This document shows, piece after piece, positions 463 through 10,911 of a DNA stretch of 64,000 bases (the first letter of the stretch is position 1; each line of letters opens with the position of its first letter). Where the stretch lies: the NCBI GenBank assembly GCA_014377455.1, contig JACMPO010000021.1, positions 1,903 through 65,902 of the forward strand. Direction: 5' to 3'. The notes below the pieces were generated by a model. It worked only from the letters and a program-made list of their open reading frames with translations, was not told where the DNA came from and ran no database searches. The translations under genes and the position numbers were made by a program. This DNA comes from Flavobacterium sp. (GTDB lineage: Bacteria > Bacteroidota > Bacteroidia > Flavobacteriales > Flavobacteriaceae).

Positions 463-470
463 TACTTTTG
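463..470 (+). promoter_or_regulatory. Bacteroidota housekeeping-sigma -7 element (TACTTTTG) for prfC
   Basis: Exact TAnnTTTG 18 nt before ATG 489. The ORF-finder TTG start at 468 lies inside this box. Confidence 0.6.
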
Positions 471-488
471 CAAATTATTGACAAAAAA

Positions 489-2078
489 ATGAGTTTTTTA
501 AAAGAAATAGATCGCAGGCGCACTTTCGGGATTATCTCGCATCCCGATGCAGGAAAAACAACATTAACCGAGAAGTTATTACTTTTTGGTGGTGCCATTC
601 AAGAAGCTGGAGCCGTAAAAAATAATAAAATTAAAAAAGGCGCCACTTCAGATTTTATGGAAATAGAACGCCAACGAGGAATTTCGGTAGCAACTTCTGT
701 TTTAGCCTTTATTTATAAGGACAAAAAAATTAATATTCTCGATACTCCTGGACATAAGGATTTTGCAGAAGATACTTTTAGAACGCTTACTGCTGTTGAC
801 AGTGTTATAGTCGTTATAGATGTGGCAAAAGGAGTCGAGGAACAAACCGAAAAGTTAGTTTCAGTTTGCCGGATGCGAAAAATTCCGATTATAGTTTTTA
901 TTAACAAACTGGATCGTGAAGGGAAAGATGCTTTCGACCTGATGGACGAAGTAGAAAAAAAATTAGGATTACACGTAACACCGCTTAGTTTTCCTATCGG
1001 TATGGGATATGATTTTCAAGGAATTTATAATATTTGGGAACACAACATCAATTTATTTAGTGGTGATAGCCGAAAAAATATTGAAGATACAATCGCAATA
1101 ACAGATATTTTAAGTCCCGAATTAGAAAAACTAATTGGACAAAAACCAGCAACAAAACTTCGGGAAGAATTAGAACTTATTGATGAAGTTTATCCAAAAT
1201 TTGACCGACAAGAATATCTTGATGGCAATTTGCAACCCGTGTTTTTTGGTTCGGCATTAAACAATTTTGGCGTTAGAGAATTATTAGATTGTTTTATCGA
1301 TATTGCGCCATCGCCTAAAGCTAAAGAATCGGACACCAGATTAATAAATCCAACCGAAGAAAAATTATCAGGATTTGTATTTAAAATCCATGCCAATATG
1401 GATCCAAAACACCGCGACCGACTGGCATTTATAAAAATAGTTTCCGGAACTTTTGAACGAAATAAACCCTATTTGCACGTTCGATTGAATAAAAGTTTAA
1501 AGTTTTCTAGTCCCAATGCATTTTTTGCGGAAAAAAAAGAGATAGTAGATATTTCTTATCCTGGCGATATTGTTGGACTTCATGATACGGGGAATTTTAA
1601 AATTGGTGATACCTTAACCGAAGGTGAGCTAATGAGTTTTAAAGGAATTCCAAGTTTTTCGCCCGAGCATTTTAGATATATAAATAATGCCGACCCAATG
1701 AAGGCTAAGCAACTAGAAAAAGGCGTTGACCAACTTATGGATGAAGGAGTTGCACAATTATTTACGCTAGAAATGAACAACCGAAAAATAATTGGAACTG
1801 TGGGAGCACTTCAATATGAAGTAATTCAATACCGATTGGAACATGAATATGGAGCAAAATGTACATACGAAAATTTCCCAGTATACAAAGCCTGTTGGGT
1901 TAAACCCGATGATACCAAAAGCGAGGAGTTTAAAGAATTCAGACGAGTGAAACAAAAATTTCTAGCACACGACAAGTACGGACAATTAGTTTTTCTAGCA
2001 GATTCAGATTTTACTATCCAAATGACACAAAGTAAATATCCGAGCGTCAAGTTGTTTTTTACTTCGGAGTTTGACTAA
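489..2078 (+). CDS. prfC: Peptide chain release factor 3
   Basis: RRRTFGIISHPDAGKTT, DFMEIERQRGIS, DTPGH, NKLD GTPase motifs. Start moved to ATG 489 (MSFLKEI). Confidence 0.98.
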   Translation: MSFLKEIDRRRTFGIISHPDAGKTTLTEKLLLFGGAIQEAGAVKNNKIKKGATSDFMEIERQRGISVATSVLAFIYKDKKINILDTPGHKDFAEDTFRTLTAVDSVIVVIDVAKGVEEQTEKLVSVCRMRKIPIIVFINKLDREGKDAFDLMDEVEKKLGLHVTPLSFPIGMGYDFQGIYNIWEHNINLFSGDSRKNIEDTIAITDILSPELEKLIGQKPATKLREELELIDEVYPKFDRQEYLDGNLQPVFFGSALNNFGVRELLDCFIDIAPSPKAKESDTRLINPTEEKLSGFVFKIHANMDPKHRDRLAFIKIVSGTFERNKPYLHVRLNKSLKFSSPNAFFAEKKEIVDISYPGDIVGLHDTGNFKIGDTLTEGELMSFKGIPSFSPEHFRYINNADPMKAKQLEKGVDQLMDEGVAQLFTLEMNNRKIIGTVGALQYEVIQYRLEHEYGAKCTYENFPVYKACWVKPDDTKSEEFKEFRRVKQKFLAHDKYGQLVFLADSDFTIQMTQSKYPSVKLFFTSEFD

Positions 2079-2167: not shown

Positions 2168-2175
2168 TATATTTG
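2168..2175 (+). promoter_or_regulatory. -7 element TATATTTG for the microprotein gene
   Basis: Exact TAnnTTTG 21 nt before ATG 2197. Confidence 0.6.
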
Positions 2176-2196
2176 TCCATTAATAAAAAGTGTTTT

Positions 2197-2409
2197 ATGA
2201 AAAATATAATTAAATGCGGTCTAGTAGTTTTTGTTTTGTTGTCAAATTTTGTTGTTTTTGCACAACCAGGAGACGAGAACAATACGGGAAATCTTCAGGG
2301 AAATGACCCAGCTCCAGCCCCTATAAACGGAAAATTAATATTTCTGGCAATAGCTGGGATTGCTTACGCTATTTATTTCTATAAAAATTACAATAAAAAA
2401 CAAGCTTAA
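2197..2409 (+). CDS. 70-aa secreted microprotein with PID-CTERM-like C-terminal sorting signal
   Basis: Signal peptide ending VVFA|Q, 19-aa polar segment, then PINGK + hydrophobic helix + basic tail KNYNKKQA. Has its own promoter box and terminator. Confidence 0.75.
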   Translation: MKNIIKCGLVVFVLLSNFVVFAQPGDENNTGNLQGNDPAPAPINGKLIFLAIAGIAYAIYFYKNYNKKQA

Positions 2410-2460
2410 AATTCTAAACAACTCTCAATTTAATTTTAGTAAATTGATTTATCACATGTA

Positions 2461-2487
2461 AAAAAATCCCTCAATGAGGGATTTTTT
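2461..2487. terminator. Bidirectional intrinsic terminator
   Basis: Perfect inverted repeat AAAAAATCCCTCA-A-TGAGGGATTTTTT between convergent genes. Confidence 0.9.
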
Positions 2488-2502: not shown

Positions 2503-3135
2503 CTAAACTTTGGCCTTACCAGAAGCTTTTAAGTTTTGGGTTTCAAATCCAGCAAAATCTCTCATATAACTCTTTACCGAAGTCCCATAGTTATCTTTTA
2601 TTTTTCTTCTACCTTTAGATTCTAAAAACTTTCGTACCGATCCTGCTCCACCTAAATGTGCAGATGCTAAAATTCCCGATTCGGTAATAGTAACACCATC
2701 TATAACTTTACCGCTGTAAATTTTTATTAAATCCCGAAGTTGCCATTTATTAATTTTGATAAGCGCAACAAATGCTTTTTCTTGTAGTTCTGGATTGTTT
2801 AAAAATTGCTGATTATTGGTTATACCAACAGATCGAAGTGCCGAAGTGCCAAACTGATATTTACCTAAATATCCTAAAGAGTTGACTAAATCGTATTGTC
2901 CTCGAGATTCTCTGCAAGCAATGGCTTCTTTAAAGCCAATAAAATATTTCCCTGTGTAAGGTAATAAACGTGATTTATAGTCAGATTCTTTTTCAGAAGG
3001 CAGTTGGTATTGGAGTACAGAAGTTTCATTTTTTAAAAACCATTGATGATTTTGAGGTATTTTAGGTTTAAAAGCCGTACTTATAAAACCTACTATCACA
3101 ATGATTGCTGTATAAAATGTCCATCTGTTTATCAT
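2503..3135 (-). CDS. Lysozyme/lytic-transglycosylase-like protein with N-terminal membrane anchor
   Basis: FKEAIACRESRGQY...LGYLGKYQFG (E-S motif) and ASAHLGGAG. Start moved to ATG 3135 (MINRW). Confidence 0.65.
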   Translation of the reverse strand: MINRWTFYTAIIVIVGFISTAFKPKIPQNHQWFLKNETSVLQYQLPSEKESDYKSRLLPYTGKYFIGFKEAIACRESRGQYDLVNSLGYLGKYQFGTSALRSVGITNNQQFLNNPELQEKAFVALIKINKWQLRDLIKIYSGKVIDGVTITESGILASAHLGGAGSVRKFLESKGRRKIKDNYGTSVKSYMRDFAGFETQNLKASGKAKV

Positions 3136-3181
3136 AAAATGTAATTTCTCAAACGCTGTCACCTTCTTGAATATTGCCGTG

Positions 3182-3189
3182 CAAATATA
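3182..3189 (-). promoter_or_regulatory. -7 element TATATTTG for the lysozyme-like gene
   Basis: CAAATATA on + strand = TATATTTG on - strand. Confidence 0.6.
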
Positions 3190-3230
3190 CACTATTTTTT
3201 TACATTATGATAATCAGTGAGTTAAATAAA

Positions 3231-10011: not shown

Positions 10012-10911
10012 ATGATAAAGAATAATGTTCTCAAAGGAGTTTTTTTAGTGGGACTTGGAGCCACAAGTTATGGAATGTTAGCTACGTTCGTCAAACTTGC
10101 TTATAACGAACATTTCACCACTGCCGAAGTTACATCGTCGCAATTTATACTTGGAATAATTGGTGTTTTGTTTATCAATATTTTTCAAAAATTAACTACA
10201 AAAAAACCAGTTGTAAAAGCAACTTTAAAAAATATATTTCAACTCATGTTTGCTGGAACTTCCTTGGGAATGACTAGTGTATTTTATTATTTATGTGTCA
10301 AATATATTGACGTTTCTATTGCAATTGTATTGTTAATGCAAACCGTTTGGATGGGCGTTTTGCTTGAAATGATTTTAGATAAAAAACTTCCATCAAAGCA
10401 AAAAATCATAGCAGTTTCAATAGTTTTAGTAGGTACTATATTGGCTACAAATTTAATTTACAATCAAAACCCAATTGATTTTAAAGGTATTTTTTGGGGA
10501 TTATTAGCAGCAGCATCTTTTACCACAACCATGTTTACTGCCAACAGAATTGCCACTAATGTTTCGTCAGCGCAACGTAGTTTATTTATGTTGCTTGGCG
10601 GCGCAATTATTGTTTTTGGTTTCGGAATTGCTACACAAACAACCGCTTTTAACTTTGAAATTTTCCTTAAATGGGGAATTTATCTTGCTTTATTTGGAAC
10701 TATAATTCCTCCACTTTTAATGAATGCAGGATTTCCAATCACCGGAATTGGACTGGGAAGTATTGTCTCTGCACTCGAATTGCCCGTTTCAGTTCTTATG
10801 GCATTTATCATTTTAAACGAAACAGTCATAATTTCGCAATGGATTGGAATTTTACTCATAATTTTTGCAATTGTACTTATGAATATTAATACTTCTAAAA
10901 GCAAAACATAA
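10012..10911 (+). CDS. EamA/DMT family transporter
   Basis: About 10 hydrophobic segments in two repeats; ELPVSV...LNE motif. Confidence 0.88.
   Translation: MIKNNVLKGVFLVGLGATSYGMLATFVKLAYNEHFTTAEVTSSQFILGIIGVLFINIFQKLTTKKPVVKATLKNIFQLMFAGTSLGMTSVFYYLCVKYIDVSIAIVLLMQTVWMGVLLEMILDKKLPSKQKIIAVSIVLVGTILATNLIYNQNPIDFKGIFWGLLAAASFTTTMFTANRIATNVSSAQRSLFMLLGGAIIVFGFGIATQTTAFNFEIFLKWGIYLALFGTIIPPLLMNAGFPITGIGLGSIVSALELPVSVLMAFIILNETVIISQWIGILLIIFAIVLMNINTSKSKT

Follow-up and report, generated by a model that had tools for sequence, protein, structure and literature searches.

Among the sorting systems described for the class Bacteroidia, the one closest to the locus reported here is the pairing of cargo-less PID-CTERM proteins with exosortase X (XrtX). 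Both partners are already modelled in NCBIfam, as part of a trio that comprises NF046080 (PID_CTERM), NF046081 (XrtX), and NF046082 (XrtX-associated protein), and the term "PID-CTERM" was not found in a literature search. Flavobacterium johnsoniae requires a related enzyme, exosortase F (XrtF), to form biofilms and to colonise surfaces (PMC10936215), and the targets of this enzyme were stated to be unknown in papers of 2024 and 2025 (PMC12188702, PMC10936215). The substrates of archaeosortases end up lipid-anchored (PMC7157517). In this study, we analysed a mini-gene in a stretch of 64,000 nucleotides (the window) from Flavobacterium sp. (assembly GCA_014377455.1, contig JACMPO010000021.1, positions 1,903 to 65,902 of the forward strand). 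The gene encodes an acidic mini-protein of 70 residues, and we consider it rather probable, from its sequence features and distribution, that this protein is a cargo-less substrate of XrtF, in parallel to the PID-CTERM/XrtX pairing of other Bacteroidia.

The open reading frame (ORF) at 2197-2409 encodes, in order, MKNIIKCGLVVFVLLSNFVVFA, the predicted cleavage point, QPGDENNTGNLQGNDPAPA, PINGK, LIFLAIAGIAYAIYFY, and KNYNKKQA. Its features in the window are as follows.

2197..2409, plus strand: mini-protein of 70 residues, coding sequence with its stop codon; supported by the ORF list, homologues, alignments, and the ratio of nonsynonymous to synonymous change (dN/dS)
2197..2262, plus strand: signal peptide, residues 1-22, with a V-F-A end before Gln23; F21, A22, and Q23 are at least 90% conserved, and cleavage is predicted
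2263..2319, plus strand: mature stub as predicted, QPGDENNTGNLQGNDPAPA (19 residues), with QPGDxxxGGxLEGxDPxxA as the consensus of the family; nonsynonymous differences per nonsynonymous site (pN) 0.178
2320..2334, plus strand: P-I-N-G-K signature motif; P42, I43, and N44 are invariant in close homologues, and the motif is aligned with the P-I-D of PID-CTERM
2335..2382, plus strand: hydrophobic membrane helix LIFLAIAGIAYAIYFY; L50 and G54 are conserved, and elsewhere hydrophobicity alone is kept
2383..2409, plus strand: basic tail KNYNKKQA and stop codon; variable in sequence among relatives and basic in all

An earlier note, made from the letters of the window alone, had described a 70-residue microprotein with a Sec signal ending VVFA|Q, a 19-residue segment, PINGK, a transmembrane segment, and a basic tail, and each of these parts lies where it had been placed. 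The tail is tripartite and occupies the extreme C-terminus, with P42-I43-N44-G45 followed by the helix from L47 to Y62 and then by KNYNKKQA. The note had also regarded the protein as one of the Sec substrates that start with Gln, a reading with which the near-invariant F-A-Q of the family agrees. Under the Q-rule of Bacteroidota, signal peptidase I substrates carry Gln at +1, and this residue is turned into pyroglutamate (PMC5837995, PMC10653852). In V-F-A|Q, the residues at −3 and −1 are small and Gln follows at +1, and both signal-peptide cleavage and cyclisation of Gln23 to pyroglutamate would be expected for the mini-protein. The stub is acidic, and the residues conserved in it across the family are Asp, Glu, Gly, Pro, and Leu. 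The family alignments show no Ser or Thr that is conserved in the mature stub, and the suggestion that the peptide might serve as a glycopeptide carrier, which thus has little basis, was set aside for this reason. A match to the Pfam family Coa3_cc (E 0.11) was judged to be due to chance.

A word-indexed search returned 27 close homologues of 52-92 residues, and an exhaustive profile search returned 398 representative clusters at E ≤ 1e-3, including 153 at E ≤ 1e-10. The best 150 listed relatives are 51-142 residues long, and no cargo domain was found in any of these 150. Their alignments give the pattern MKxxLxKxYxLxFxLLSDFxxFAQ-PGDxxxGGxLEGxDPxxA-PI(N/D)GKL-helix-basic tail, in which F21, A22, Q23, P42, I43, L50, and G54 are invariant or nearly so. 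Across the broad family, the P and I of the motif are at least 90% conserved and the third position is N or D.

Selection on the gene was estimated from 39 distinct orthologous coding sequences, in which pS was 0.71 (synonymous sites being saturated) and pN was 0.245, corresponding to a dN/dS of approximately 0.14. The mini-gene is real and is under purifying selection. When examined by segment, pN was lowest in PINGKL (0.096) and rose through the mature stub (0.178), the signal peptide (0.235), and the helix (0.317) to the tail (0.411). Such an order would be expected of a motif that serves for recognition, a stub that forms the product, and a helix and tail that need only be hydrophobic and basic; strongest constraint on the motif with weakest constraint on the helix and tail is the pattern expected of a sorting signal that is discarded.

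In some members of the family (P0032, P0124, P0153, P0173, and P0176), the acidic unit P-G-x-x-x-G-x-L-E-G-x-D occurs twice in tandem before P-I-(N/D). This duplication suggests that the acidic unit is itself the functional module. The acidic family is also amplified in some Flavobacterium genomes, with 13 matches in G432, 10 in G437, 7 in G509, and 6 in G455. Four of the copies in G509 lie within 88.8-99.9 kb of its contig C20, directly after prfC (86.5-88.1 kb).

The similarity of the tail to PID-CTERM was assessed by searches against curated models and by profile alignment. A scan of NCBIfam at E ≤ 10 matched two families, neither of them a PEP-CTERM model. The PID_CTERM model NF046080 matched residues 42-60 with 17.9 bits (E 0.002), and its curated cut-off is 26 bits; 22 of the 27 homologues also matched this model, with a best E of 0.0014, and none reached the cut-off. 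The search with this model that the earlier note had proposed thus did not place the protein in the curated family. XrtX scored above its own cut-off of 170 bits in 67 of 251 genomes of the class and in none of the Flavobacteriales. Eight of the 14 XrtX loci encode, within approximately 50-130 nt of XrtX, a mini-protein that lacks cargo and ends in [IV]PIDGG-helix-GxKK. These eight XrtX-linked mini-proteins are 59-79 residues long, and seven of them pass the PID_CTERM cut-off with 37-50 bits. Alignment of the acidic family with the eight by hhalign gave a probability of 96.5% and an E of 7e-10 over 30 columns, with P-I-N placed on P-I-D, although such scores can be inflated where a membrane helix dominates the alignment. 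The proposal of a PID-CTERM-like sorting signal accordingly holds for the tripartite build and for the register shared with the XrtX-linked tails, and it does not hold for the curated model, which is not reached, or for XrtX and its associated protein, which were not found in this genome. NF046082 gave no match here at E ≤ 0.01, a model that is silent in control genomes as well. Collectively, these results mark the tail as a diverged relative of PID-CTERM, by homology or by close analogy, and not as a member under the curated test.

The assembly consists of 269 contigs and is 94.7% complete, and the mini-gene is on contig C44. A search for an exosortase such as XrtF, also suggested in the earlier note, recovered both XrtF and its partner. 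XrtF (TIGR04128) is the single exosortase-family gene in the assembly (C261:2025-2543; 215.4 bits against a cut-off of 90). Directly downstream is the TIGR04127 partner, which matches over the first 60 residues of a 148-residue ORF (46.8 bits against a cut-off of 35). Residues C93, R134, and H153 of XrtF are invariant with the F. johnsoniae enzyme and with six XrtX sequences. No larger cargo protein with the same tail was found in the genome by a regular-expression scan and two hidden Markov model scans of all six-frame ORFs, which returned just the mini-gene and a weak paralogue on contig C8; a looser hydropathy filter on the six-frame ORFs returned noise alone. More than one match to the XrtF model was seen in six other genomes (G065, G170, G188, G454, G488, and G507).

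The phylogenetic co-occurrence that the earlier note had asked about was assessed in two samples, and in both of them the acidic family was found in XrtF-positive genomes only. The first sample was an even draw of 301 Flavobacteriales genomes, of which 126 are XrtF-positive and 175 XrtF-negative. Full-length matches to the family profile occurred in approximately 65 genomes, all of them XrtF-positive; five matches in XrtF-negative genomes covered the signal peptide only and lay on large ORFs. The second sample comprised 401 Flavobacterium genomes at least 97% complete (363 XrtF-positive and 38 XrtF-negative). Matches better than E 1e-4 were present in 279 of the 363 XrtF-positive genomes vs none of the 38 XrtF-negative ones, nine of which had weak matches at 2e-4 to 7e-4. 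At E ≤ 1e-10, the counts were approximately 159 of 363 vs 0 of 38. On a prfC tree of 81 genomes, seven changes are needed to account for the absence of XrtF, and well-supported branches carry at least five of these.

A second mini-protein of this genome, found by the regular-expression scan, links the family to published genetics. It is encoded at C8:3601-3810 on the plus strand, convergent with ribE (C8:3839-4417, minus strand), and has 69 residues, MKFAPHKFLLILVALILSNSLFAAPSPPEPIPPVPPGFPIDSNIIFCVLLSIVYSFYKLYVNKKSFNLN. The protein has a proline-rich stub, a PPGFPIDSN motif, a helix, and a basic tail, and it scores 28 bits against the family profile. A colonisation screen of F. johnsoniae turned up xrtF together with its partner gene Fjoh_1449, and also Fjoh_0651, a small "hypothetical protein" (PMC10936215). 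Deletions of the three genes share a phenotype, with less colonisation of sand, much less biofilm, and abolished zorbs, and the Fjoh_0651 deletion was complemented by a 434-bp fragment (PMC10936215). We placed Fjoh_0651 with the published primers on genome G441, which was taken as F. johnsoniae UW101; five primers match, and the printed UR/DF primer, which matches with an insertion and deletions, was located by fuzzy matching. Fjoh_0651 corresponds to C1:710501-710740 of G441 on the minus strand (10501-10740 of locus L126) and encodes 79 residues, MKIVRIIFLVFFLVLNVPNVLADNEPPPPPPAAAKGAASTALAPPAPGLPINQDLPYLIAAGLLLGTAVIYRNKIKKASI. The protein is built of MKIVRIIFLVFFLVLNVPNVLA, a Pro/Ala-rich stub, APGLPINQDL, a helix, and RNKIKKASI, a sorting-signal-type build that was not noted in PMC10936215. 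No NCBIfam match was found for Fjoh_0651.

Fjoh_0651 is convergent behind ribE and lies near pdxA, a 180-residue ORF, fabH, and accB. The 180-residue ORF is one that we take to be DUF177. The gene on C8 is the positional orthologue of Fjoh_0651, since it has the same neighbours. The acidic class was not detected in F. johnsoniae. When the ribE slot was surveyed in 80 genomes, a proline-rich mini-protein was present in 35 of 42 XrtF-positive genomes vs 0 of 38 XrtF-negative ones (36 of 43 with the present genome included), and one or the other class was present in 42 of 43 vs 0 of 38. Across five well-supported independent contrasts, the presence of a mini-protein follows XrtF in 4.9 and opposes it in none.

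These results suggest a pathway that would run as follows. The mini-protein would be exported by Sec and cut by signal peptidase I after V-F-A, and Gln23 would then be cyclised to pyroglutamate. The C-terminal helix would hold the protein in the inner membrane, its basic tail lying on the cytoplasmic side and its acidic stub of 19 residues on the periplasmic side. XrtF, the only exosortase-family enzyme in the genome and one that has the conserved Cys, Arg, and His, would recognise P-I-N-G at the membrane face and cut there. The enzyme would hand the capped peptide of approximately 20 residues to an acceptor, either a lipid or a surface polymer, or would release it; attachment to a lipid or polymer is proposed by analogy with exosortases and archaeosortase A (PMC7157517). 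A wider version of the proposal, which we advance only tentatively, is that the acidic class behind prfC and the proline-rich class behind ribE, of the Fjoh_0651 type, are both XrtF substrates, each giving a pyroglutamate-capped peptide of approximately 20 residues that is cut at P-I-(N/D) and joined to a membrane lipid or surface polymer.

Several observations weigh against the assignment of the mini-protein to XrtF as a substrate. Cleavage at P-I-N by XrtF is inferred, as is the cut of PID-CTERM-type mini-proteins in general. The mini-gene and XrtF are on different contigs (C44 and C261), and no mini-gene was found beside XrtF in any case where both coordinates are listed, the closest pair being 10.5 kb apart (G060). 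The PID_CTERM score of 17.9 bits against a cut-off of 26 and the possible inflation of the hhalign score count on the same side, as does the finding that the sole match to the XrtX model in this genome, which is 94.7% complete, is the XrtF gene itself (106.7 bits against a cut-off of 170), XrtX being likely absent. With regard to distribution, approximately 23% of XrtF-positive Flavobacterium genomes have no detectable member of the acidic family, 28 of the 38 XrtF-negative genomes fall in one clade, and the sign test on the five contrasts gives p 0.0625, the lowest value possible with that number. The tie of the acidic class to XrtF is phyletic only, and the genetic tie belongs to the proline-rich class. 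Fjoh_0651 aligns end to end with the acidic family profile at 16 bits, which is a weak similarity, and it gave no significant pairwise match to the own-genome paralogue. Furthermore, the phenotype of Fjoh_0651 does not point to XrtF specifically: the pattern is shared by four other F. johnsoniae mutants, sprA and porV differing only in B. cereus colony expansion.

Three other explanations have to be weighed against this background. A chance ORF in the AT-rich spacer between prfC and the terminator is suggested only by the shortness of the frame and by the lack of a curated family above cut-off, and it is refuted by the homologue clusters and the dN/dS: hundreds of homologues keep frame, length, and motifs, dN/dS is approximately 0.14 with saturated synonymous sites, and the promoter box is conserved. 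Chief among the rivals is a single-pass microprotein of the inner membrane that is not cleaved at the motif; once its signal peptide is removed, it would stay anchored by the C-terminal helix and would act with XrtF, or with another envelope machine, as a small subunit, chaperone, or regulator and not as a substrate. Such a stable membrane protein would agree with the positive-inside topology and with the conservation of L50 and G54 in the helix, the co-occurrence with XrtF and the Fjoh_0651 phenotype suit a partner as well as a substrate, and the cargo-less state of all listed relatives is unusual for a sorting signal. This rival is nevertheless unlikely in our estimation, as XrtF already has a dedicated conserved partner in TIGR04127, the tail aligns with a curated sorting domain, and a least constrained helix and tail next to a most constrained motif at the membrane face are what a site of recognition and cleavage shows. 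The protein could also be a small exported or anchored peptide with no tie to XrtF, such as an envelope filler, a metal-binding acidic peptide, or a signal, whose distribution reflects shared ancestry and lifestyle. Its genes are indeed unlinked to XrtF, and their conserved linkage is to prfC (40 of 40 loci); most XrtF-negative Flavobacterium genomes belong to one clade, the XrtF-negative families of the order sample are mostly small-genome lineages, and independent contrasts are few. Yet no counter-example was seen among the 175 XrtF-negative genomes of the order or the 38 of the genus, a result that weakens this explanation. At least five independent losses of XrtF are all without both classes, nearly every sampled XrtF-positive genome keeps at least one, and the sorting-signal-like tail would be left to explain; we regard an XrtF-independent peptide as improbable. 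A cargo-less XrtF substrate is the interpretation that we retain for the acidic mini-protein.

The surroundings of the mini-gene contain three further features.

468..2078, plus strand: prfC, for peptide chain release factor 3; a conserved gene of the same orientation, immediately 5′ of the mini-gene in 40 of 40 related loci (86-95% identity)
2168..2175, plus strand: TATATTTG box, which fits TAnnTTTG, 29 nt 5′ of the ATG at 2197; putative promoter
2461..2487, no strand assigned: perfect 12-bp hairpin AAAAAATCCCTC-AAT-GAGGGATTTTTT flanked by an A-run and a T-run; terminator-like and usable by both convergent genes

A box of its own and a perfect terminator had likewise been read from the sequence in the earlier note, and both are there. 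TAnnTTTG is the −7 promoter consensus of Bacteroidota. Such a box occurs 26-33 nt 5′ of the ATG in 23 of 41 orthologous loci, which supports a promoter belonging to the mini-gene itself; no good match to a −33 TTTG was found at the expected spacing to TATATTTG. The spacer between prfC and the mini-protein ORF is 118 nt long and AT-rich. The monocistronic arrangement given in the earlier note is putative: a scan of 1900-2700 found no terminator between the two genes, and the hairpin at 2461-2487 is the sole terminator-like site in that region, where shuffled sequence gave 0.4. Just beyond the hairpin ends a convergent ORF of 229 residues (2503-3192, minus strand). This ORF has an N-terminal hydrophobic segment and a weak match to an aggregation-promoting-factor C-terminal-like domain (21 bits, below cut-off), and it is not conserved beside the mini-protein in relatives.

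The 40 loci in which the mini-gene stands directly behind prfC come mostly from named Flavobacterium, including F. agri, F. lacus, F. filum, and F. wongokense, and the downstream neighbour differs between them. Pfam GTP_EFTU and RF3_C are recorded on the prfC neighbours of relatives. The prfC slot holds a mini-protein in just part of the genus, and a test of co-loss at that slot is for this reason only partly informative. A role of the mini-protein as regulator of prfC was considered and dropped, as its ORF is downstream of prfC and its product is exported. The prfC ORF, as called mechanically, begins with TTG and has 536 residues, and its relatives have 529; the true start is probably the ATG seven codons further in, which gives MSFLKEID. 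In two contigs from metagenome-assembled genomes labelled "Variovorax paradoxus" and "Francisellaceae" (L009 and L034), a prfC of the Flavobacterium type (89-91% identical) precedes the mini-protein; both contigs are probably mis-binned.

The results name concrete and very small candidates for XrtF substrates, whose presence tracks the enzyme over hundreds of genomes and several independent losses. One such candidate is Fjoh_0651, on record as a "hypothetical protein", whose deletion resembles that of xrtF, and the question of what XrtF acts on becomes directly testable in the tractable F. johnsoniae. A substrate of approximately 45 residues after removal of the signal peptide would be an unusually convenient handle on exosortase chemistry. 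If the wider proposal is true, a ribosomally encoded lipopeptide or glycoconjugate would be needed for biofilm formation and surface colonisation by Flavobacterium; the "sorting signal" would then sort no cargo, and the tiny stub itself would be the product.

Compared to the PEP-CTERM/exosortase A and PGF-CTERM/archaeosortase A systems, the mini-protein and XrtF show the same short Pro-led motif, helix, and basic cluster and the same type of polytopic membrane enzyme with Cys, Arg, and His. The signals of those systems are carried by large cargo proteins, often dozens per genome, whereas here there is essentially no cargo and there are one or two copies. Of the XrtF system itself (TIGR04128 and TIGR04127), this genome has intact copies of both genes, and the mini-protein family occurs only alongside XrtF. 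That system differs in having no described substrate, and the link proposed here is drawn from co-occurrence, resemblance to PID-CTERM, and the Fjoh_0651 phenotype. Fjoh_0651, with its 79 residues, is alike in its signal peptide, short stub, P-I-N motif, helix, and basic tail, and it differs in that its stub is rich in proline and alanine and its gene lies behind ribE, whereas the acidic class lies behind prfC.

The closest likeness is to PID-CTERM and XrtX. The mini-proteins of both systems have a Sec signal that often ends in A-Q, a low-complexity stub of 10-25 residues, P-I-D/N-G, a helix in which one Gly is conserved, and a basic tail. They carry no cargo, and their tails align in register. 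The XrtF of this genome is a paralogue of XrtX, as indicated by its 106.7 bits on the XrtX model and the same invariant Cys, Arg, and His. The differences are equally clear. The motif is P-I-N-G-K-L here and [IV]-P-I-D-G-G there, and the stub is acidic here (G-x-L-E-G-x-D) and rich in Gly, Pro, and Cys there. The mini-gene is behind prfC and away from its presumed sortase, whereas the PID-CTERM genes are usually beside XrtX, and the acidic family is confined to the Flavobacteriales, where XrtX was not found. XrtX passes its cut-off outside this order only, XrtF is the exosortase of the Flavobacteriales, and the two enzymes look complementary across the Bacteroidia. What this locus adds to the cargo-less proteins already modelled is a mini-protein below the curated cut-off, with an acidic stub and P-I-N-G-K, in a genome whose only exosortase is XrtF, unlinked to that enzyme and tied instead to prfC.

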